From: Candidatus Peregrinibacteria bacterium Greene1014_49
Lineage (GTDB): Bacteria > Patescibacteriota > Gracilibacteria > Peribacterales > Peribacteraceae
Length of the DNA: 34,538 nt
Direction: 5' to 3'
Assembly (NCBI GenBank): GCA_007376635.1
Contig: VMGQ01000002.1
Span: 1 to 34,538 of the forward strand
Shown: positions 1,880-34,538 of the stretch, in pieces
Layout: each line of letters opens with the position of its first letter
Position numbering within the stretch: position 1 is the first letter of the stretch
Made by a program: the position numbers and the translations under genes
The notes under the pieces: generated by a model
What the model was told of the DNA's origin: nothing
Seen by the model: the letters and a program-made list of their open reading frames with translations, nothing else
Database searches by the model: none

Positions 1880-3616
1880 ATGGCAGCACGTTCAATGGTC
1901 GGCACAGAAACGCCCTCTCACTTGAAAATCTATCGAGGCGAAGAGGGTGATGATGGAACGGACAACGTGGATAACGGCACACGCCGTTCCATTCGTGATA
2001 AAGCTCGAGAGCGGTGCATGCGGGCACTCGAAAGCGGACTTTCGGGATCACGAGCATGGACGCAGAGAGACTCTCGGGAATTCCGCTCTGAAAATCTCTC
2101 GGATCGCGCGCTTTCTCTCGTGGGCATTGTCACCCACGAAGAGCAATTGCGCGCGATTCTCGAAAATGAATCCCAGCATATTCCCAATATCATCAGCAAA
2201 ATCCACAGTTTGGAACCGCAGTTTCGAGCGCAGATTACCGAAGCAAGAAGCAGAGGATGGATCAGCGAGCGCAGTGCCTCTGGATGGATCGCCCGCCTGG
2301 AAGATTCTGCAACCCCATGGTGGAAGAAAGATATCTTCATCCGGGAAAAATTCCCTGCCTATCAACGCAATTGGGAAAAACTGGGTGAAGATGAGGAAAA
2401 AGTGCAGAAGATCTGTGCTCAGAAAGGCATCAAACCCACGGATCTCCGCGAAGTCGGGGTACTCTCAGCGCACGGTTTCAAGGATGCGACGTATCTGTTT
2501 CGGCGCGGTGCGGTCGACAAAGCACTTGCAGCAATCGCAGCAGTCGGAACAAACCGCAAAGATCTTTATGATGAAGCCAAGCACATGCTCAACCAAGCCG
2601 TCGCCGATGATGCACTCTCGAAAGCAAAGATTGGCACATGGCTCCGGCGCATCTTCGAAAGTAATGCGGATCCCAAAAAGATCGAAGAGTTCGTAATGGG
2701 AAAAGGCACGATGCCGCTCCCGACTTTGATCTGGCAATGGCGCAAAGCCTCCCTCGAGTTCGACAAACTGGAGGCTCGCATTACCAAGGAAGGAAAACCT
2801 CCGAGTTTCACCTTCATGACAAAAAAGAGATTCCTCGATATGCACTACGAAAGCCGCATGGCCTATCTGCAGGAAGCGGAGTACCGCATGAAAGACACAC
2901 AGCTTGCGGCCATTCATCCTCTTCTTCTCGATATCCGCCGCGAAATCGACGCCAAAGACTGGGGCTCAGCCGAGTACCTCATGATCCGCGCGCGGGCATT
3001 AGGTCTTTCCCCGAAGGATCAGGCCAAGCTCGCCTCCATGGAACGCCATATGAACGCACAACGGAGTGAACAAGGTGGCAAAAGCCATGAGGGTACCGGA
3101 GATCCACACGTGGAGCTGGAAGCACTCTTGGCTCAAGTCCCGGCATCCGTCCAGCCCCTCTTCCGAGCCGCAATCGATCGGGGAGAGAGTGTCATGCGCT
3201 GCCTCAAATCCCTCTGGTTTAACCGCGATTGGTGCCGCAAGCACGGTCATCTCGATGACCAAAAGGAGGAAATTCTCCGACAACGTTCGGAGCGTGATAC
3301 GCAGAAAGTCCTCCATGAAGGGCATGGCAAAGGATACGAAAATATTTCCACACGTCACGGTAAACCAGCCGTACGCAAATACCATGATGGAGAGTGGGCG
3401 CCGCAGGTGCTGCACTACTCGACTGATATGTGCGATTCGCTCGTTGAAGATATCACGACCGGAAAAGACAATTACGCATTCAAGTACTGGACCACGCTCG
3501 TTCCTAAGGGTGTAGATTTCGGGACGCATACATACGTTCTTCATAGCATTTTCCCCCGGATGATGCAGTGCGTGCGACGCATTGATGAGGCGCAGGGCAA
3601 AGCAAAAGCAGCCTAA
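1880..3616 (+). CDS. Hypothetical protein, 578 aa, charged and probably helical
   Basis: Long ORF that fills the gap between neighbours without overlap; no motif recognised. Confidence 0.8.
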   Translation: MAARSMVGTETPSHLKIYRGEEGDDGTDNVDNGTRRSIRDKARERCMRALESGLSGSRAWTQRDSREFRSENLSDRALSLVGIVTHEEQLRAILENESQHIPNIISKIHSLEPQFRAQITEARSRGWISERSASGWIARLEDSATPWWKKDIFIREKFPAYQRNWEKLGEDEEKVQKICAQKGIKPTDLREVGVLSAHGFKDATYLFRRGAVDKALAAIAAVGTNRKDLYDEAKHMLNQAVADDALSKAKIGTWLRRIFESNADPKKIEEFVMGKGTMPLPTLIWQWRKASLEFDKLEARITKEGKPPSFTFMTKKRFLDMHYESRMAYLQEAEYRMKDTQLAAIHPLLLDIRREIDAKDWGSAEYLMIRARALGLSPKDQAKLASMERHMNAQRSEQGGKSHEGTGDPHVELEALLAQVPASVQPLFRAAIDRGESVMRCLKSLWFNRDWCRKHGHLDDQKEEILRQRSERDTQKVLHEGHGKGYENISTRHGKPAVRKYHDGEWAPQVLHYSTDMCDSLVEDITTGKDNYAFKYWTTLVPKGVDFGTHTYVLHSIFPRMMQCVRRIDEAQGKAKAA

Positions 3617-6561: not shown

Positions 6562-7149
6562 ATGCACCTCTCCGACCAAAAATCTCAACTCCGCATCTCG
6601 ATTGACGAACGCCTCAAGCACCTCAATGAACAGGAGCGCTCCGCCGAAAGCCGTTCACTTTGTCGTAGGCTAACGGAAGGAATACCCACAGGAACTCCAA
6701 TATGCGCTTTTTTTCCGATGCGCTCCGAACCCGATATCACACCGTTTCTCGAAGAAGTACTCCACCGAGCTGATCCACTCTACCTCCCCTGTTTCGATGG
6801 AATACTCATCTTCCGACAAGCGACGGATCTTTCAATACTTGTTCGTGGGAAACTAGGAACGCTCGAACCTCCACCTACTGCCGCTACAATCGCAAATAGC
6901 AAATCGCAAATCGCAAATCGTCTTACAATCCTCGTCCCCGGCCGCGCCTTCGACCCCCACGGCAACCGCCTCGGCCGCGGCAACGGCGGCTACGACAAGT
7001 GGATCGCGGAAGCACGTAAAAAGGGCGTATCCATGCGATTGATTGGCGTTGCACTGGAATGTCAGATTGTGGATAGTGTGCCGGTGGAATCGCATGATGA
7101 AGGAATGGATGCCTTTGCAACGGCAAGGGGGATACATAAATGTACATAG
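6562..7149 (+). CDS. 5-formyltetrahydrofolate cyclo-ligase
   Basis: K..LR N-terminus, ILVPGRAFD..GNRLGRGNGGYDK, VPVESHD motifs. Confidence 0.93.
   Translation: MHLSDQKSQLRISIDERLKHLNEQERSAESRSLCRRLTEGIPTGTPICAFFPMRSEPDITPFLEEVLHRADPLYLPCFDGILIFRQATDLSILVRGKLGTLEPPPTAATIANSKSQIANRLTILVPGRAFDPHGNRLGRGNGGYDKWIAEARKKGVSMRLIGVALECQIVDSVPVESHDEGMDAFATARGIHKCT
6887..6921. repeat. 5 x 7-mer (AAATCGC-like) tandem array inside the cyclo-ligase gene
   Basis: caatcgc aaatagc aaatcgc aaatcgc aaatcgt; reading frame stays open (TIANSKSQIANR). Confidence 0.85.
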
Positions 7150-9218: not shown

Positions 9219-9264
9219 TGGAGAGATCCATAAATATGGCTCTGTGATGACAAATACACAATAT

Positions 9265-9293
9265 TTGCATATTATTCATAAATATTATATAAT
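9265..9293 (+). promoter_or_regulatory. Sigma70-type promoter
   Basis: TTGCAT-N17-TATAAT in an AT-rich spacer. Confidence 0.65.
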
Positions 9294-9321
9294 AATACTA
9301 ATATCCAATTACTTTTCTTCT

Positions 9322-9843
9322 ATGGCACATCGCCAAAACTCTAAGCGCTATGAACGTCTCGTCGCAGCCTTCTCCGCTTCCGCATTTGCTCTCCTTGTGA
9401 CCGTAAGTACAGAGAGCACTGCATCGACAAGCGCAGGTCTTACGACGAAAACACGATCTGTCATCCGAACGACACCAAGTTCAAGCGTGCGGCAGACGAC
9501 GCCATCTCAGCCATCACGAGCAACTGCGACACCTATGCGAGAGAGCATTGAGACTGAGGAAACTGGTTCTGCATACATTGAAGAATACGGATCGTCATAC
9601 CACCGCGCTTCCCCGGTATGCCTCTGTGGATGCACCACATCGGACGCTGGCTCCCTCTGCCCAGTACGCACCGAGAATGGCGTGTGTCCGTTCTCCTCAA
9701 GATACGCTATCGCAGCGAGCGGCGAAGATGACTGCTCTGAGTTCTTGGCTAGAAGCGGAACAACCTGTGTTGGATATGACAGCAGCAATGCAACACGAAC
9801 TGGAACGCACATGATCTGCAGTAAAGCAGTGTTGCCGGATTGA
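9322..9843 (+). CDS. Exported or anchored protein with Ser/Thr-rich linker and Cys-rich C-terminal domain
   Basis: Hydrophobic N-terminal segment, S/T/P-rich stretch, 8 Cys in the last ~75 aa. Confidence 0.7.
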   Translation: MAHRQNSKRYERLVAAFSASAFALLVTVSTESTASTSAGLTTKTRSVIRTTPSSSVRQTTPSQPSRATATPMRESIETEETGSAYIEEYGSSYHRASPVCLCGCTTSDAGSLCPVRTENGVCPFSSRYAIAASGEDDCSEFLARSGTTCVGYDSSNATRTGTHMICSKAVLPD

Positions 9844-10002
9844 TGCGCCCTAACGCATCTCAACATTGAATGGCATGATGACAACTCCGACACCGGATGA
9901 AGACAATTTCAGAATACAATATGCGAATATCTTTCATCCTGAAGCCATAATATTCACGTCAAATATTGTATAACTTTTGTATTCATAACACATCCAATTC
10001 CC

Positions 10003-10424
10003 AGCGCTATGCCGAAGATTTGCGCAAATTTCCGGTGCGCGTACGATAACATGATTTGCACACAGCAAATCTCAGCCATCAGCCTTCGTCCGCCTCAGGC
10101 GGATGTAGCCCTCGTTCCTTCATTACAGAGAACACCCATACAAACACTCCTACGCGTTAAGCGCAGGAGATCGCTCTCCAAGTTCGTGATTGCCGGCTCA
10201 GGTGCCAGCATTCGCGCAATCCCCCACTCCCCAGCGTGATCTAAGCCTTAGGCTTACGCATCGCCACCACGGGGAACTCGCCAGGCCATGAGGATAAACA
10301 AGCGGCCAGAGGAGGGCACAAACGGGAACCTGTCCCAACTTCTCTCTTGTCTCTAGGAAGCTCTTGCTCTCCAAAGCGACACAAGAGAAACACACATACA
10401 AAGAGACCCCATCGGGGTCTTTTT
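10003..10424 (+). ncRNA. Candidate structured non-coding RNA, family unknown
   Basis: Series of about 9 stem-loops with A/C-rich linkers, AT-rich promoter-like region upstream (TGTATAAC near 9967-9974), terminator at the 3' end, no convincing ORF. Confidence 0.5.
10401..10424 (+). terminator. Intrinsic terminator
   Basis: AGACCCC-atc-GGGGTCT followed by TTTT. Confidence 0.8.
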
Positions 10425-10541
10425 GTTATAAGAATAATAAATAAACTTTTGTCGAGTGCAGGATTTACTAATACCACAAATCTTTTCACATACTCCTGCA
10501 ATTGTTTCACTTCTTGGCCAGCCGTACGGTAACGCACTTCC

Positions 10542-10967
10542 ATGACTTCACGTGCATTCGCCACCGGCCTGCTGAGCGCTCTCTTCGCGCTTATGCCTAT
10601 CACAGGGTTTGCCCACCATGATGGGGGTTTCGACGACTATTCGTACGATGACCTCTATGACAATGTCGGTGCATACGATGATCCCTATCATGTGCAATAC
10701 GGCTCCACGTATTACGGCAATAACTATCGATCCAATGACTATTTTTACGACGAGCGATATGGCAATTCTCGAGATACCTATAATCCCCAATACACCATGC
10801 CGGGATTCCGCTGCTACTACTGGGGCAGAGATGGCACCTGCATGAACTATTCCTACCGCCAAGCACCTTCTTACTACGGCGGCTCTCCCTATGGATATAA
10901 CAACTACGGCTATCAGAACAACAACTACGGATATCGCAGTCGCTGTAACTACCAAGAGTGCTATTAA
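10542..10967 (+). CDS. Secreted Tyr/Asn/Gly/Asp-rich low-complexity protein
   Basis: Signal peptide ending ITGFA; 28 Tyr in about 117 mature residues; CYYWGRDGTC motif. Confidence 0.8.
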   Translation: MTSRAFATGLLSALFALMPITGFAHHDGGFDDYSYDDLYDNVGAYDDPYHVQYGSTYYGNNYRSNDYFYDERYGNSRDTYNPQYTMPGFRCYYWGRDGTCMNYSYRQAPSYYGGSPYGYNNYGYQNNNYGYRSRCNYQECY

Positions 10968-10999
10968 TATCATTGTCCCACTATTTTCCTTCCCCACGT

Positions 11000-11362
11000 A
11001 TGTTCCCTCGTCTCCTCACCATCGGCTCCGCTCTCGTTTCCCTCGTCGCTGCCTTCGCTGCCTTCACAGCGAGCGCTGAGGCGAGTTACTACTACGACGA
11101 ATCCGCCTACAACCGTCCGACCCCCTGCTACCAGTACGACGGCCAAGGACACTGCGTCTCCAGCGGTACGCGCTACCGCGCTCGTACCACGTACAACAGA
11201 ACCTACAACGGATCGGCCTACAACAATCAATATCCTTATGGTTACACAAACTACGGCAGCAACGGTTACTACCGCCCGGTCGATAACTACTACCCGAACA
11301 GAAACAACGGCTGTTACTGGTACTACGGAAGCTACCGATGTGATAACAAGTGCAATCACTGA
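11000..11362 (+). CDS. Secreted Tyr/Asn/Gly-rich low-complexity protein
   Basis: Signal peptide ending ASAEA; CYQYDGQGHC and CYWYYGSYRC motifs. Confidence 0.8.
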   Translation: MFPRLLTIGSALVSLVAAFAAFTASAEASYYYDESAYNRPTPCYQYDGQGHCVSSGTRYRARTTYNRTYNGSAYNNQYPYGYTNYGSNGYYRPVDNYYPNRNNGCYWYYGSYRCDNKCNH

Positions 11363-11845: not shown

Positions 11846-12344
11846 ATGATTCCCCGACACTTCTCCTACCTTCTCCACCCAACCGTGAAGATCTTAAAAA
11901 ATGCTGAGCGTTTTCACCGAAGGCAAAAGGCTCGGATACTGTTCCCGTGATGTTGACCGGTTGCTGCGTACTGATCCCCCCACCTGTATTCCGACTCTCT
12001 GTAGACACCGCAATAATTTCTCCACGACTAGTCCCAACAGTGGAGCCGGAATGTGCGCCTGCCTGTCTAGGAGGCAGGCGAACGATACCGCTGTCTCCAC
12101 CATTCCCTTCACTACACGCCAGTCGTTCACGCCAGCCCTCTGTGTGCGGTTGATAATACGGAAGAGGCCCAAACATCCCACACCGGATGTAATCGGGTAA
12201 CGGACCGAGAGCGCCTAAGAAATGATCGTTCGTTGGAGCATTTGCAGCATGTACCGGCTCCGCTCCGGCAAAGAGGTGAATGATGATCGCGCAGCATGTC
12301 AGGATGAACATAGGAGGAGCACAGTACTCCATATGATCATGCAT
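11652..12344 (-). CDS. Hypothetical exported protein; 3' end uncertain
   Basis: Start overlaps the stop of the upstream ATPase; signal-like N-terminus; overlaps dgkA by 194 nt on the opposite strand. Confidence 0.4.
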   Translation of the reverse strand: MHDHMEYCAPPMFILTCCAIIIHLFAGAEPVHAANAPTNDHFLGALGPLPDYIRCGMFGPLPYYQPHTEGWRERLACSEGNGGDSGIVRLPPRQAGAHSGSTVGTSRGEIIAVSTESRNTGGGISTQQPVNITGTVSEPFAFGENAQHFLRSSRLGGEGRRSVGESFMVYQGGKGGGAPRGVPSWPPLPSPPVRQPQQRPLPLSWNDGGGHSHFLWGDCPPHLLGVPRRY

Positions 12345-15069
12345 TTCCTCCCTTTTTCTTCTTCTCCACTTCCGCCAGCAACGTCTTACTGGGTGGCGGC
12401 ACGCCTCCCGAAGCCTCCAGTTTCTTCTCGAGATCTTTCATCTTACCCATATCTTGCTCCGTGAGCACTTCCCCGAGCAATGCCCTCTTACGCAGAGCAT
12501 TGAAATCATTCGTCCACATTTCTTTGTCGCGCCACTTGCGGTACTCCTCAAGCGACATCTTCTTTTCCCGTGCTTTCTTCTTCTCCTCCTCTTCCTTCTC
12601 TTTTGCCTTTTCAACAGACTTTACGGCAACCCTTCCCTCCTTTGCCGATTCTGCCCAGCGTTTGATTTTATCTTCCACGACTGCCCGTTTTTCACTGTAA
12701 CGCTCGCGCGAAAGTCTTCGTATGATCTCGACACGTTTGCTGTCTTGATCGAAAGCCGGAGGGGGAAGGGTACTCACGGAGAAGGGCTTGCTCGGGATAC
12801 CATCGATCATCAAACGCATGTACGCATGGTACTTCGGAAGACTCAGGATATCTTTTTCGACGACCATTTCTTCAAATTGCTTGCTGAGCTCCTCGGCATC
12901 ATCGGAACCAACTTGGAAGCTGGTCATGGTGCCCACGTTTCCAAAGACCGCATCCTGGAGCTTCGTGCTTTTATCACCAATCAGAAGCTGCGCGACGTAC
13001 TGGTTGGCCATTGTCAGGCTCAGACGATACTTGCGAGCCTCAGAGAGGATCGTGGCAAAGGATTCTGTTGCAAAGTTCTGAAACTCATCAACGTACAGGA
13101 AGAAATCGCGGCGTTCTTTCTCCGGAATATCGGCTCTGCTCATCGCTTCGAGCTGAAACTTGGTCACGAGCATGGAACCAAGGAAACCGGAGGTATCTTC
13201 GCCGAGCTTTCCCTTACTCAAGTTCACGAGAATGATTTTCCCGGTGTCCATCGCGTGGCGGATATCCACGGTACTTGTCACCTGTCCAATGATATTTCTG
13301 ATGAGCGGTGTGGAGAGGAGTTGCCCCACTTTGTTCTGAATCGCGGCGATGGCTTCCGTACGATATTTTTCGCTCCAGGAAGCGTATTCGTCCTCCCAGA
13401 AACTCCGAACCAATGGGTCAGATAAGCGTGAGACTACTTTTCCCCGGTACGCGTCATCAGCAAACATGCGCATGATGCCAAGCATGGAAGATCCTTCGGT
13501 CTGCAAAAGCGCGAGAAGAGTATTGCGAAGAATGTGTTCCATACGTCCGCTCCATACGTCCGGCCAGAGCTTGGTAAACACACTCATGATTCCTGATGCC
13601 ACAAGCGGCTGCTGGTCTCTATCTCTGCACTCAAGAATATTGAAGGAAATGGGGAAATCTTTGTCCGAAGGATCAAAGAGAATGACATCGTTGCTGCGTT
13701 CTTTGGGAATGAATTTCATCACGGCATCGACAAGATCTCCGTGCGGATCGATGAGCCCAATCCCCCGCCCTGCGTGGATATCGGAGAAGAGCATATTTTC
13801 CAGAAGTGTGGATTTACCCATACCCGTCTTTCCAATGATGTAGATATGACGACGGCGATCATCCGTCTTGATGCCGAATTTCGTCCGTGCACCGCGGAAT
13901 ACGGCTTCGCCGAGCAGTGTGAGGTGCTTCGATTCGTCTTTTTCTTCCACCGGCGTCTTTGGCGGAACGGGAAGATTGATCGGCGGTTCGAGCTTCTTAG
14001 AAAGCACCCAATCAATGTTCGGCGTCTGCACCATCGCGGTGGGAAGATGCCAAAGTGTTGCGATTTCCTCCACAGAAAGGACATACGGATGAATCGTAAA
14101 CCCGAGCGGAATCTTCTCGGTCACGGTAGGGGTGAGCAAGCGAAAGGCATTCGTATGGGGAAGCGCAAACTGCCGGAAACTTCCGACAATTTCCTGAAGC
14201 TTCTGCATACCCTCTAAGCGATGCCCCTTGGGAACAATGACGCTCAAGCGGACATTGCAGATAAAGAGCAGTCTGTTGACCTTGTCTTGCGCCGCAGCAA
14301 TGGAGTCTTCACGATCGTGGTTTCTCGCTGTGACATGCTCATGCTCATCCGGGTCACTGCTCATGGGCTCATCGGAAAGCATCGACGTCGATCCCGCCAA
14401 AAATTTAGAGAACCCCGGCCATGCGCGGAATCCTCCCATGAATATCGAGATCGGAAGGAATGCGAGCCGACGCCATCCGCGAGCGAGCTGTACACGGGCG
14501 AAGAGATTGGCATACCGCTCGGACATGGAAGACATTCCTTTTTGGAGCAACGGCAGAAAGCGCCATGCGCGCTTGCGATAGCTGCCACCGATGGGTTTAA
14601 AGACCACTTGCACATGTCCACGCATTCCGGGGATGTCATTGCGGGCGAGAGCTGAGCTGACACCCGCTATCGGACTCATGTTTACGCGACTGAGAAGATC
14701 ATCGAATTGCGGATGTCGCTTGATCGGATAAATTTCCGGTTCTTTGAGCGCTAAATCCATCGTCACGACTTCTTCATCCTCGCGCGTGGCAAACGGATCT
14801 GCATCGACTTCCCGGTCGATATCAATCTCCGGATACTGTGCATACATCTGGCTTTGAGCAAGCTGTGCAGCCACTTCGGTCGCTCGTATGAAGAACGCGA
14901 TACGCCCGTCTCCGCCCATTCCCACTTCAAACTGCACCAGAGCATTCTTGCCCCTGAGCGCATGCAACGCAGCGATAGCAGACTCGGCATAGAGCGGACC
15001 TCTGGGGGTTTCTTTTTCCCCTTCTTTGGCCGGACGAATGCGGAGGATGACTTGTGGTGAATCCGTCAT
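12337..15069 (-). CDS. VirD4/TraD/HerA-like ATPase (T4SS DNA-binding domain/DUF87 type, common in CPR)
   Basis: RRRHIYIIGKTGMGKS Walker A, IDPHGDL, YVDEFQNF Walker B, LSEARKY, AVFGNVGT. Confidence 0.88.
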   Translation of the reverse strand: MTDSPQVILRIRPAKEGEKETPRGPLYAESAIAALHALRGKNALVQFEVGMGGDGRIAFFIRATEVAAQLAQSQMYAQYPEIDIDREVDADPFATREDEEVVTMDLALKEPEIYPIKRHPQFDDLLSRVNMSPIAGVSSALARNDIPGMRGHVQVVFKPIGGSYRKRAWRFLPLLQKGMSSMSERYANLFARVQLARGWRRLAFLPISIFMGGFRAWPGFSKFLAGSTSMLSDEPMSSDPDEHEHVTARNHDREDSIAAAQDKVNRLLFICNVRLSVIVPKGHRLEGMQKLQEIVGSFRQFALPHTNAFRLLTPTVTEKIPLGFTIHPYVLSVEEIATLWHLPTAMVQTPNIDWVLSKKLEPPINLPVPPKTPVEEKDESKHLTLLGEAVFRGARTKFGIKTDDRRRHIYIIGKTGMGKSTLLENMLFSDIHAGRGIGLIDPHGDLVDAVMKFIPKERSNDVILFDPSDKDFPISFNILECRDRDQQPLVASGIMSVFTKLWPDVWSGRMEHILRNTLLALLQTEGSSMLGIMRMFADDAYRGKVVSRLSDPLVRSFWEDEYASWSEKYRTEAIAAIQNKVGQLLSTPLIRNIIGQVTSTVDIRHAMDTGKIILVNLSKGKLGEDTSGFLGSMLVTKFQLEAMSRADIPEKERRDFFLYVDEFQNFATESFATILSEARKYRLSLTMANQYVAQLLIGDKSTKLQDAVFGNVGTMTSFQVGSDDAEELSKQFEEMVVEKDILSLPKYHAYMRLMIDGIPSKPFSVSTLPPPAFDQDSKRVEIIRRLSRERYSEKRAVVEDKIKRWAESAKEGRVAVKSVEKAKEKEEEEKKKAREKKMSLEEYRKWRDKEMWTNDFNALRKRALLGEVLTEQDMGKMKDLEKKLEASGGVPPPSKTLLAEVEKKKKGGNA

Positions 15070-27955: not shown

Positions 27956-28012
27956 GGCGATGAGGGAATTTTTCCTCGATTGCCGATCATTTATTCATTA
28001 TGATCTGATCGT

Positions 28013-31264: not shown

Positions 31265-32422
31265 TCATGTCACCACCTCCTCCAGCCTCCCCTCTCCTAC
31301 CGCCGCCTTGAGTTCCATGCCAATACGTTCTCCAACAGACATCGCTTCGCCATAGAGATACCGCGTATACGGCGTCGCAAATGTTCCGGGGGAACCCGGC
31401 ATGCGGAAGCTCACATCAAAAATAACAATGTCCTCTTTGCCATCTTCCGTCACCACCGCTCCCTGGAGGGCAAACGGCCCGATAATGCCTTTTCCCGTCG
31501 GATCGAGCTTCTTCGGAAGCTTTTTGCATTGTGTAACGAACTTTTCCCCGAGCTCAAAGGCTTTTTCCAGCAGGGATTCTTTGACAGTGCAGGCGATGTG
31601 TCCCGTTTCCACCATCTTCACGGAGGTGAACTGTTTCGCCCATGTTTGATCTTCAGCCGTCATCCGGAGAAATCCGTCGAGATTGGTCTGCCGGCGGGTA
31701 TCTGTTCCGAGAAGTTCCAGTTCTCCCGTCAGCGGCGAATAAAAGAAGTTGAAATTCACGGGAGCGCCAACGACAAACTCCTCGATCGTCGCGTCATCCA
31801 TAGCATCGGGGCTGATCATTCCTGATTTGATGTGCGCGTTCACGCGATCGTCGAAGTCCGCGGCAGTGGCGAGAAAGAAGCCTCGCTCGTATTTGCGCTG
31901 CGCTTCACGCGCTTTCACGATCACCATACGACCGAGGTCGATCTCCTTCGCGGTCGTATACATCTTCGGCGTCCGGATGCCGGCATCGCGCAGCAGATGA
32001 TTTTGGTTATACGGTTGATCGCGCTCCTCAAGTTTCAGCAAATGCCGCGAGCCGAAGATCGGAATGGCAAACTCCTCTTCCACCTTTGTGTAATCCGGGA
32101 AGTACACGCAGAAGTATCTACTATGAACAAAAATTGTGTTCATATTTTGAAGCTTATCGACAATCTTTTTCTGCAAGACGTCTTCAAATTTATCCACGAT
32201 AATCGTCTCGTCGATACAGCCCACCTCCCCACTCCCCACTCCCGATTCCCGACACTTGTAGTACTTCTCATACGTCTTCTCCCTCCCCTTCCGTGCGACA
32301 CATACCGTTCCAAATCCATACTTCTTCGCGCCGTGCGCGACATCGAGAGCACTGTGGCCGCCGAGCATGCCGACGGTCAGATGCTTCTGATCGTAACCGG
32401 AGAGGATGGAAGAGAGATCCAT
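31265..32422 (-). CDS. PurP-like ATP-grasp ligase (DUF1246/DUF1297)
   Basis: GGHSALDVAHGAK..GF, FNFFYSPL, DTRRQTNLDG, GHIACTVKESLL, IGPFALQG, DVS.R.PGSP. Confidence 0.9.
   Translation of the reverse strand: MDLSSILSGYDQKHLTVGMLGGHSALDVAHGAKKYGFGTVCVARKGREKTYEKYYKCRESGVGSGEVGCIDETIIVDKFEDVLQKKIVDKLQNMNTIFVHSRYFCVYFPDYTKVEEEFAIPIFGSRHLLKLEERDQPYNQNHLLRDAGIRTPKMYTTAKEIDLGRMVIVKAREAQRKYERGFFLATAADFDDRVNAHIKSGMISPDAMDDATIEEFVVGAPVNFNFFYSPLTGELELLGTDTRRQTNLDGFLRMTAEDQTWAKQFTSVKMVETGHIACTVKESLLEKAFELGEKFVTQCKKLPKKLDPTGKGIIGPFALQGAVVTEDGKEDIVIFDVSFRMPGSPGTFATPYTRYLYGEAMSVGERIGMELKAAVGEGRLEEVVT
32220..32254. repeat. 5 x 7-mer tandem array inside the purP-like gene
   Basis: cccacct ccccact ccccact cccgatt cccgaca, read as CRESGVGSGEVG on the minus strand. 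Confidence 0.8.
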
Positions 32423-33848: not shown

Positions 33849-34538
33849 TTAGCCCAAAACTTCACTCAATCTCCCCTCCTCAATCGCCGTCTTAATGTCC
33901 CGCGCTATCCTCCTTCCTGTACTCATGGGCTCTTTGTATCGCAGTGCCGTGTACGGCGATCCTTCAACGAAGGGATTGGTGCCAGCGACAATGCGAGCAG
34001 AGATCTCAAAAACGAAGATTTCCAACTTCCGCGTGACGATACACTCGAGACAGAACGGTCCAAACAATCCTTTGCCTCCGCACATTTTCTTGCTGGTTTC
34101 CACGACCCTCTCTCCCATCGCGAAGAACTCCGGAAGCAATGATTCGCGGATGACGACCGGAATGTTGCCGACGATGGTGTAGGACGTGAAAATATTGGCG
34201 GCAAGTTGATCCTCCGCACGAATGCGGCCGATAGAGTCGGCGTTGCTTTCGTAGCGCTTGTCGAAGCTCATGATCTCGAGTTCTTGCGTAAGCGGTGAGA
34301 AGAAGTAGTGTGCGTAGATAGGAACACCGACGATGTATTCCTGGAGCGCGAAATCGTTTTGTTCCGGATACTTGCGGTTCTTCACTTCGTAAAACTGCTC
34401 CGCACTCTTGGCGATGAAGTACCCGAATCCTCCGCCGGCACCGTGGAATTTTACGATCACGGCCTTCTCGATCTCCTCGGGTGTTGCAAAAACCCTGGGC
34501 ATTTTGATATCGGCCGCCTCGAGCCATTGGCGCTCCAT
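33849..34538 (-). CDS. purP: Formate--AICAR ligase PurP, C-terminal part; 5' end probably outside the window
   Basis: VIVKFHGAGGG.GYF, QEYIVGV, DKRYESNAD, GNIPVVIRESLL, GPFCLE, FEISARIVAGTN. Confidence 0.9.
   Translation of the reverse strand: MERQWLEAADIKMPRVFATPEEIEKAVIVKFHGAGGGFGYFIAKSAEQFYEVKNRKYPEQNDFALQEYIVGVPIYAHYFFSPLTQELEIMSFDKRYESNADSIGRIRAEDQLAANIFTSYTIVGNIPVVIRESLLPEFFAMGERVVETSKKMCGGKGLFGPFCLECIVTRKLEIFVFEISARIVAGTNPFVEGSPYTALRYKEPMSTGRRIARDIKTAIEEGRLSEVLG

Follow-up and report, generated by a model that had tools for sequence, protein, structure and literature searches.

A candidate stand-alone structured RNA gene of the order Peribacterales, with a covarying core, paralogous copies and no match in Rfam

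Locus and sequence features

The subject of this work is a stretch of about 435 nucleotides (nt) on contig VMGQ01000002.1 of Candidatus Peregrinibacteria bacterium Greene1014_49, a bacterium of the Candidate Phyla Radiation (CPR), which in all likelihood is a real and conserved gene for a structured non-coding RNA (ncRNA). The host genome comprises 1.36 Mb in 105 contigs and is 96.5% complete. All positions given here are those of the window, i.e., the whole stretch of 34,538 nt that was analysed. The RNA lies in a gap of 698 bp (9844-10541) that is free of open reading frames (ORFs) and is bounded by ORFs at 9244..9843 and 10542..10967. Only short overlapping frames, e.g., one of 76 aa at 10009..10239, occur in its interior, in agreement with the roughly 700 bp without a credible ORF described in an earlier note on this DNA. 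The AT-rich upstream region of that note is also present, with a GC content of 0.28 at 9900-9999 compared to 0.51-0.60 in the RNA body, as are the A/C-rich linkers, at 10132-10146 and 10388-10400. The RNA probably extends from about 9994 to about 10427 on the + strand and would thus start a few bases before position 10003, the start given previously.

The minimum free energy (MFE) of 9990-10430 on the + strand is -152.6 kcal/mol, compared to a mean of -117.3 (standard deviation 6.2) for dinucleotide shuffles. With a z-score of -5.66 and none of 100 shuffles folding as well, the fold is beyond chance; the - strand gives a z-score of -3.05. Each of the complementary segments named in the earlier note was located in the sequence, but two of the ten pairings built from them are not kept in relatives. 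GATTGC/GCAATC gives way to the covarying hairpin 10185-10216, and GGGCACA/TGTCCC is replaced by a long-range helix (10173-79 / 10311-17) together with a local hairpin (10324-36). The segments TCCCC..TAAGCCT/AGGCTTA..GGGGA span 10228-10275, GGCC/GGCC is found at 10284-87 / 10304-07, and the DNA segments of the outer 3' helix, TCTCTTGT/ACAAGAGA, are found at 10343-50 / 10381-88. The features of the window copy are compiled in Table 1.

Table 1. Features of the RNA gene copy located in the window
Feature	Position	Strand	Description
Upstream promoter-like motif TGTATTCATAAC	9978..9989	+	Conserved; -10-like CATAAC at 9984-9989
Hairpin H1, GCGC/GCCG/AGAUUU...AAAUUU/CGGU/GCGC	10004..10040	+	MFE fold; DNA segments GCGC/GCCG/AAGATTTG...CAAATTT/CCGGT/GCGC
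Conserved block GUACGAU...GAUUUGC-loop-GCAAAUC, then UCAGCCAUCAGCC	10041..10086	+	Contains hairpin H2, 10053-59 / 10065-71
Variable hairpin H3, UCCGCCU/AGGCGGA	10087..10105	+	Stem 10089-95 / 10097-103
Invariant block GCCCUCGUUC, then A/C-rich linker 1 ACACCCAUACAAACA (10132-10146)	10108..10146	+	Invariant columns in the genus alignment
Hairpin H4, CUCCU-CGC/GCG-AGGAG	10147..10169	+	Short equivalent of a long helix or an entire domain found in other genera
Four-way-junction core	10173..10317	+	P-a 10173-79 / 10311-17; P-b hairpin 10185-10216
Core, continued		+	P-c 10228-32 / 10271-75, enclosing hairpin P-d 10236-64; P-e 10284-87 / 10304-07
16-nt P-e loop AUGAGGAUAAACAAGC	10288..10303	+	Core GAGGA(U/G)AAA(C/U)AAG near-invariant in alignments A3, A4 and A5
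Hairpin H-k, GGGA-ACCUG-UCCC	10324..10336	+	Helix covaries; 5/5 pairs with double changes
3' domain, outer helix UCUCUUGU/ACAAGAGA around an inner stem-loop	10343..10388	+	Reduced form of the family's CCUCC...GGCUCAG-[hairpin]-UGAUAGCC...GGAGG
A/C-rich tail AACACACAUACAAAGAG, intrinsic terminator AGACCCC-AUC-GGGGUCU (10404-10420) and U tract to 10427	10389..10427	+	Sequence reading; DNA after the stem TTTTTGTT

Distribution and paralogs

A DNA search located the stretch in six of the six other genomes of the genus. The genus alignment consists of invariant blocks alternating with hairpins that change in sequence, with insertions ranging from 11 to 137 nt. A second, diverged copy is additionally present in each genome of the genus. 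In Greene1014_49, this copy (B) is located on contig C43 (~2467-3040, - strand) and has a length of ~570 nt, while the window copy (A) is the shorter one. Both have in common the upstream box, the GUACGAU...GAUUU hairpin, the whole core, the A/C-rich tail and the terminator. The neighbours of the C43 copy are a divergent gene for a membrane protein and a convergent one for a TPR protein. In several genera, the terminator of B-type copies is directly followed on its 3' side by a hairpin GGAAACC-UAC-GGUUUCC (C43 ~2420-2450; L018, L024, L041, L051), which may belong to the 3' end of the convergent TPR gene.

Two covariance models of the 158-nt core were used to follow the RNA across genomes. R1, built from 12 sequences, finds it in 141 of the 151 family genomes and 81 of the 84 genera, with one to three copies each. 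R2, built from 31 sequences, matches 147 of the 151 genomes and all 69 of 69 genera of the order, which consists of this one family. The match lists of the two models contain at least 250 copies from the order. Homologs in CPR genomes, the search for which had been recommended, are therefore present in nearly the whole order. Within the class, R2 has matches in 15/15 genomes of the RNA-bearing family, and in G052, the sole genome of family f17, it recovers both copies (E-values 1.7e-8 and 8.7e-8). Borderline matches are seen in one of 15 genomes of f8 and one of two of f3, and none in the other families of the class sampled. Outside the family, none of 148 genomes of the phylum has a match. 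In species-representative genomes, the exact core pattern occurs in at least 119 stretches, and the 80 record titles among the matches listed all name Candidatus Peribacteria, Peribacteraceae, Peribacter, Peregrinibacteria or "Patescibacteria group". The family is confined to one CPR order (titled Peribacteria or Peribacteraceae) and at least one sister family.

The distant G052 copy is genuine. P-a is kept via three compensatory changes (GCUUUAU/AUAAAGC), P-e is kept as GGUA/UACC, and an A-rich tail with a terminator is present. The P-e loop of this copy reads GAGCAUAAAUAA. In the same genome (L072), ~260 nt upstream of the RNA core, four to five tandem copies of a ~45-nt unit (AGAGCUUUUGAACCUAAAAUCCGGGGUAGCUAAAAUAUAGCCAU-like) occur, which looks like a repeated hairpin module.

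The two copies are located 20-36 kb apart and facing each other in many genomes, such as G105 (C2, 21092(+) and 47616(-)) and G016 (C1, 228243(+) and 257728(-)). Exceptions are G005, in which both copies are on the + strand and 29.7 kb apart, G098 with a distance of 135 kb, and G066, which contains a tandem pair and a third copy. In a tree of 86 copies with known gene context, the context label requires 9 changes, whereas shuffled labels require 25.5. Within the genus, the A and B copies group together with 100/99 support and have derived states in common, namely the loop GAGGAU and P-a as GCUCUCC/GGAGGGC. Two ancient and clean paralog clades are thus unsupported, given the 9 label changes and this clustering. 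The grouping and the common derived states point to gene conversion between the copies or to parallel change driven by a common partner.

Consensus structure and covariation

The consensus structure comprises a four-way-junction core and a nested 3' domain. RNAalifold analysis of a MAFFT seed alignment of 12 sequences gave 27 core pairs, 10 of which show compensatory changes. Across 31 sequences from ~25 genera, 94.6% of cells in the core pair and 15 of the 27 pairs have double changes; this larger alignment was fitted to the model, which favours its score, but the 10 pairs with compensatory changes were already evident in the MAFFT seed. None of 500 column shuffles reaches the observed value, and sliding the partners by 1-3 columns reduces the pairing to 33-47%. 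For the 3' domain, a structure-blind MAFFT alignment with 63 out of 100 usable sequences was examined. The fraction of paired cells is 91.4%, and double changes are seen in 22 of 24 pairs; 0/500 shuffles match this, and the slid controls give 41-54%. Covariation among homologs, which the earlier note had named as a test, is thus strong in both parts of the RNA. The family architecture of the 3' domain includes the H-k hairpin, an outer helix CCUCC/GGAGG, and, enclosed by these, an inner helix GGCU/AGCC whose internal loop CAG / UGAUAG is conserved, in addition to a variable hairpin and the terminator. A kink-turn or C/D-box was considered for the CAG / UGAUAG loop and dropped by eye, as the strands do not fit such a motif.

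G-U pairs are frequent at individual core positions (UG in 30/31 sequences, GU in 22/31). On the opposite strand these would be A-C mismatches, which places the RNA on the + strand. Apart from the helices, several junction and loop nucleotides are conserved, specifically AAGUU, a C-rich stretch between P-b and P-c, ACUC, and the P-e loop core GAGGA(U/G)AAA(C/U)AAG, while the peripheral hairpins vary freely. The P-e loop core is the most conserved unpaired element of the RNA family. In most of the family, the loop of H-k is CUCCUC and thereby complementary to the P-e loop GAGGAG. The complementarity extends over 6 nt in 58 of the 121 copies and over 4 nt or more in 113 of them, with a shuffle mean of 3.6. 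In the window copy, 3 bp are possible by eye (AGG/CCU).

The window copy is a shortened member of the family. Its promoter-like box lies ~190 nt before the core, compared to a family median of 290, and H4 stands in for a long helix or domain of other genera. The H4 hairpin is formed by all six orthologs tested, in five of which 0/200 shuffles are as good; its stem sequence varies among orthologs, and the column-wise pairing in the MAFFT alignment is poor (67.9%). Hairpin H1 is specific to the window copy and its closest relatives and is weakly supported, with 61-70% of cells paired across the seven genus orthologs. H2 pairs in 7/7 orthologs, yet is nearly invariant. At the position of H2, the paralog has GAUUUACC/GGUAAAUC and G031 has GAUUUGUUU/AAACAAAUC, as judged by eye. 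H3 is an insertion site with 11-74 extra nt in orthologs, and its base pairs 10087-89 / 10103-05 covary (CG, GC, UA). A segment of 24 nt around H3 (10080-10103) has matches of 96-100% identity at unrelated sites of family genomes, six in G015, three in G031 and one in G001, and may be a small dispersed hairpin repeat. Within the invariant block that follows, CUCGUUCC is found again in the 5' domain of other genera and is an alternative partner of GGAGGGC in the genus-only consensus fold. The outer 3' helix is only 31-36% paired by columns, yet each ortholog makes its own closing helix there; all six genus orthologs fold to a nested closing helix at the 3' domain, with z-scores of -0.07 to -3.4.

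Non-coding status

A conserved coding signal, which would have spoken against an RNA gene, was not found in the alignments. At most 16 of the 31 cores are stop-free in any one frame of either strand. Comparison of the window copy with its six orthologs reveals 61 internal indels, of which 50 have lengths not divisible by three and therefore break reading frames. Stop-to-stop frames are long by chance in this C-rich sequence, with a median of 113 codons.

Gene context, promoter and terminator

The gene context was counted over 121 distinct family copies, among which two conserved settings predominate. In 54 copies, a convergent TPR-protein gene (Pfam TPR families) is located downstream and/or a divergent membrane-protein gene without Pfam match upstream. 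In 29 copies, glyA is located upstream on the same strand and/or a gene for a VirD4/TraG-like ATPase lies convergently downstream. The remaining copies comprise 35 in which neither context could be recognised, often owing to short flanks, and 3 odd ones. The window itself carries a VirD4-like gene at 12337-15069 (-); the interval between this gene and the RNA contains two Tyr-rich genes, a gene for a diacylglycerol kinase and a further ORF. The Tyr-rich genes (10542-10967 and 10958-11362, +) encode small proteins with signal-peptide-like N-termini and a very high content of Tyr, Asn and Gly; neither protein matched a Pfam family. Further away, the neighbouring genes at 31265-32422 and 33849-34538 (-) encode proteins with DUF1297, one of them also with DUF1246. 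These domains are typical of archaeal-type ATP-grasp enzymes of purine synthesis and are unusual for a CPR genome.

The earlier note had linked the RNA to the flanking secreted proteins and had offered a long attenuator as an alternative. Neither idea is in line with the wider synteny. At both conserved positions the downstream gene, of VirD4/TraG-like or TPR type, is on the opposite strand, and in the loci of other genera no Tyr-rich genes were seen downstream of the RNA. As the downstream gene is convergent in other genera, the RNA is a stand-alone gene and no leader of the Tyr-rich genes.

The upstream box TGTATTCATAAC is invariant in the seven genus orthologs and common to the C43 paralog. 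A like motif precedes 69/121 family copies, compared to 5/121 in the reverse-complement control. In the genome, the box TGTATTCATA(A/C) precedes both copies and otherwise occurs at chance level (5 matches versus 5.2 expected). By eye, boxes reading ATTCAT(T/A)AT or ATCATAAT precede the RNase P gene (C74) and several tRNA genes at a distance of 8-20 nt, one tRNA example being 27980-28012 of the window, and may represent the -10 region of strong promoters in this organism. These boxes before stable-RNA genes suggest a -10 region at 9984-9989 and a putative transcription start near 9994. A promoter scan gave no sigma-70 consensus at the conserved box, and no -35 element could be placed.

At the 3' end, a hairpin followed by a T run is found 102-127 nt past the core in 24/24 other loci, and tail and terminator align in 26/26. 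In the scan output, the 10404-10420 hairpin is assigned only to the - strand. As its stem is preceded by an A tract, this terminator is probably two-directional and would also end the convergent gene. The generic marks of a structured ncRNA gene, i.e., compensatory changes, the lack of a conserved frame, an own promoter-like box and a terminator, are all present here.

Known RNA families and literature

In line with the earlier note, the locus does not correspond to a known RNA family. Rfam 15 (4227 families) gave only tRNA matches over the whole window at gathering thresholds. For 9800-10600, with E-values up to 10, the best match reached 21.6 bits, the threshold being 101.4. At gathering thresholds, 0 matches were obtained with the paralog and four relatives, and a search of 14 diverse family members with E-values up to 1 returned five unrelated weak matches, none recurring. 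ARAGORN found no tmRNA in the window. The RNase P RNA and the tmRNA of this genome are encoded on other contigs, at C74:6524-6960 (153.6 bits) and C39:1776-2191 (72 bits), so that this locus is not the genome's copy of either. Within the searchable part of the literature, no publication joining Peribacteria, Peregrinibacteria or CPR with structured ncRNA was found. As far as Rfam and this literature show, the RNA family is undescribed.

An identity as the RNA of the signal recognition particle (SRP) was considered because the genome has no detectable SRP RNA. Models RF00169 and RF01854 gave no match in this genome or in 31 relatives. However, the SRP_SPB and SRP54 domains of Ffh and FtsY were not found in this genome either, and the identity was rejected since no SRP protein would be there to bind. 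A search for Ffh/FtsY domains in 41 relatives gave weak P-loop matches only, with one over the cut-off. Considering this genome (G000) and the 41 relatives, from 17 families of the class, no SRP RNA, Ffh M domain or SRP54-type GTPase was found, and the whole class seems to lack the SRP pathway. The absence of SRP subunits in many CPR bacteria is stated in a passage of PMC8080830, so that this absence is already known.

Proposed mode of action

The suggestion of an independent structured ncRNA gene is supported by the homologs, the covariation and the lack of a conserved frame. Taken as a whole, it is fairly probable that the locus is a stand-alone gene for a structured ncRNA of ~435 nt, belonging to a family outside Rfam that is confined to one order plus at least one sister family, and acting in trans as a scaffold or regulator. 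The functional part of this statement, a trans-acting ribonucleoprotein scaffold or regulator, is more tentative and falls somewhat short of being probable. Acting in trans, the folded RNA would bind at least one protein partner and serve as a scaffold or regulator, comparable to OLE, raiA, 6S or Y-type RNAs. The conserved 16-nt loop GAGGA(U/G)AAA(C/U)AAG would be the prime candidate for a contact surface, and it may dock on the CUCCUC loop of the next hairpin, H-k, in a loop-loop contact. A precise junction and unpaired nucleotides are kept while peripheral hairpins grow and shrink, which makes a folded scaffold or regulator the most likely mode of action. Such a pattern would fit one precise three-dimensional shape for partner binding or catalysis. 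Less likely alternatives are a simple antisense RNA and a sponge of the repeat type.

Several observations weigh against this interpretation. In the 7-sequence genus alignment, H1, H4 and the outer 3' helix of the window copy are only 31-70% paired by columns. The genomes are relatives, and the shuffle controls therefore overstate significance; the number of distinct pair types is large despite this kinship. The genus-only consensus fold pairs GGAGGGC with the invariant GCCCUC (10108-13) and not with GCUCUCC, which may indicate an alternative or switching fold, although family-wide covariation favours GCUCUCC as the partner. Both the H-k and the P-e loop are nearly invariant with almost no covariation, which keeps the contact between them hypothetical. 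Four of the 151 genomes of the order have no R2 match, three of them being 98-100% complete, and the RNA may thus be dispensable. Finally, no gene is consistently linked to the RNA by function, and the distant G052 copy has unrelated neighbours.

A far-reaching version of the scaffold model is speculative and considered unlikely. According to this version, the RNA would be the first large, complex-folded and CPR-specific ncRNA class, serving as the RNA subunit of an undescribed ribonucleoprotein (alternatively as a ribozyme or a sensor) with near-essential status in Peribacterales. Its role might be regulatory, in cells without SRP, detectable 6S, Hfq and FliW, e.g., as a junction-scaffolded clamp for a single dimer of an orphan CsrA. 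If true, such a single-dimer clamp would be a new way of antagonising CsrA.

New large and intricately folded bacterial RNAs are rare, and RNase P, tmRNA, 6S, OLE, GOLLD/ROOL and the IscB-associated RNAs have each opened up biochemistry. The ncRNA repertoire of CPR is almost unknown, and the present RNA is near-universal in a whole order of uncultivated ultra-small bacteria. Its two copies at fixed positions in genomes of ~1.2 Mb, together with its near-universality, argue for an important function. The analysis also corrects the annotation of the stretch, which is no leader of the neighbouring secreted-protein genes. The RNA is open to direct experimental testing, as an alignment exists, the secondary structure is supported and a specific loop is conserved.

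Alternative explanations

The main rival to the scaffold or regulator model, and a weaker one, is that the RNA is an antagonist or partner of CsrA, binding and titrating a CsrA dimer via one or more conserved GGA loops, as CsrB and RsmZ do in Gammaproteobacteria. This explanation is regarded as improbable, even though the genome encodes a CsrA homolog of 71 aa at C44:6925-7137 (+) (L207:1387-1602; Pfam CsrA 38.5 bits, cut-off 27) and neither FliW, flagellin nor Hfq was found in it. CsrA without FliW usually has RNA antagonists. The Pfam search, used in place of an uninformative single-protein search (2/151), found CsrA in 19/24 genomes of the RNA-bearing family and in 0/16 genomes of 16 other families of the class, thus mirroring the distribution of the RNA. 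The match is imperfect, however, as G008, G014, G020, G021 and G024 have the RNA and no CsrA match, while G007 and G011 have CsrA and no RNA match; both may simply mark one clade. Within the family, the P-e loop always contains GAGGA, but it is alone in keeping GGA, since a second apical loop (P-b) has GAGGA in only 24 of the 121 copies. GGA is not enriched over all copies (9.64 observed versus 9.26 in shuffles, ratio 1.04), and the many GGA motifs, mostly in hairpin loops, that characterise a sponge were not found. In G052, the RNA is present while a CsrA match and a GGA in the P-e loop are both missing. CsrB and CsrC are paired genes with their own promoter and terminator, which the two paralogous genes described here resemble, each having a promoter-like box and a terminator; the conserved four-way junction is unlike known sponge RNAs. 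The CsrA homolog has an insertion of ~20 residues past the N-terminal strand and adjoins a cysteinyl-tRNA synthetase-like gene, as seen by eye. Mimicry of Shine-Dalgarno and anti-Shine-Dalgarno sequences by the GAGGAG and CUCCUC loops was also considered. The canonical 16S anti-Shine-Dalgarno sequence is CCUCC, and the idea was weakened because the 3' end of the organism's own 16S rRNA, ...GGAUGGAACAUUUCCUUACC, has UUUCC instead. This 3' end is encoded on contig C72 (-), with the tail ...CCUGCGGAUGGAACAUUUCCUUACC carrying UUUCC in place of the usual core, and this organism may initiate translation without canonical Shine-Dalgarno pairing.

A functional analog of 6S or Ms1 RNA, i.e., an abundant stable RNA that binds RNA polymerase, is less probable again. 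Such a role would suit a stand-alone gene with two paralogs and a promoter box of the stable-RNA type, and model RF00013 gave 0 matches in the whole genome with E-values up to 1; this blank is weak evidence, given that the control detected 6S in no more than 5 of 14 well-known genomes. In proteobacteria, the classical 6S gene neighbours the 5-formyltetrahydrofolate cyclo-ligase gene. Such a gene (6562-7149) is located 2.8 kb upstream of the RNA, but glyA and another ORF separate the two. The consensus of a four-way junction and nested 3' domain is no rod with a central bubble, and the RNA itself has no RF00013 score whatsoever. That the RNA is instead a cis-acting, riboswitch-like leader or attenuator for the downstream Tyr-rich secreted-protein genes is very improbable and largely refuted by synteny. 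In this genus the next genes are on the same strand, starting ~115 nt past the terminator, and the genus fold offers an alternative pairing of GGAGGGC; in contrast, the C43 copy lies between two genes of the opposite strand, the downstream gene in other genera is convergent at both conserved positions, and the terminator looks constitutive, ~100 nt beyond the conserved core in 26/26. Hardly credible is the view that no functional RNA exists and that the stretch is a decayed gene, a remnant of a mobile element or a small-protein gene. The short overlapping frames could be read in its favour, but the double changes in 15/27 and 22/24 pairs, the frame-breaking indels without a conserved frame and the occurrence of the RNA in 69/69 genera stand against it. 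A phage or mobile origin was rejected, as viral contigs gave 0 matches to the core pattern.

Comparison with known systems

SRP RNA, RNase P RNA and tmRNA are in the size range of the present RNA, and all are structured housekeeping RNAs. The latter two differ in having genes of their own elsewhere in this genome (C74 and C39), while for the first neither an SRP RNA match nor Ffh/FtsY is found. With 6S RNA, which sometimes occurs in two copies, the RNA has in common a stand-alone gene of stable-RNA type, and no canonical 6S was found in the host genome. However, 6S is a rod with a bubble, whereas the present RNA is branched and has no RF00013 score.

CsrB/CsrC and RsmX/Y/Z are similar with respect to the paired paralogous genes, the GGA in a conserved hairpin loop and a host with CsrA and no FliW. 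They differ from the present RNA in that the latter is a multi-way junction rather than a string of GGA hairpins, with GGA unenriched and an imperfect co-occurrence with CsrA.

Regarding OLE and the raiA motif RNA, the present RNA does not match their Rfam models, is found in CPR, and occurs as two paralogs at fixed chromosomal positions. The gene oapA adjoins OLE, and the present RNA has no comparable linked partner gene. The likeness to both lies in a stand-alone gene of several hundred nt with many covarying helices and conserved junction and loop nucleotides. Like OLE and raiA, the function of which is unsettled, the present RNA is large, complex-folded, restricted to a lineage and near-universal within it.

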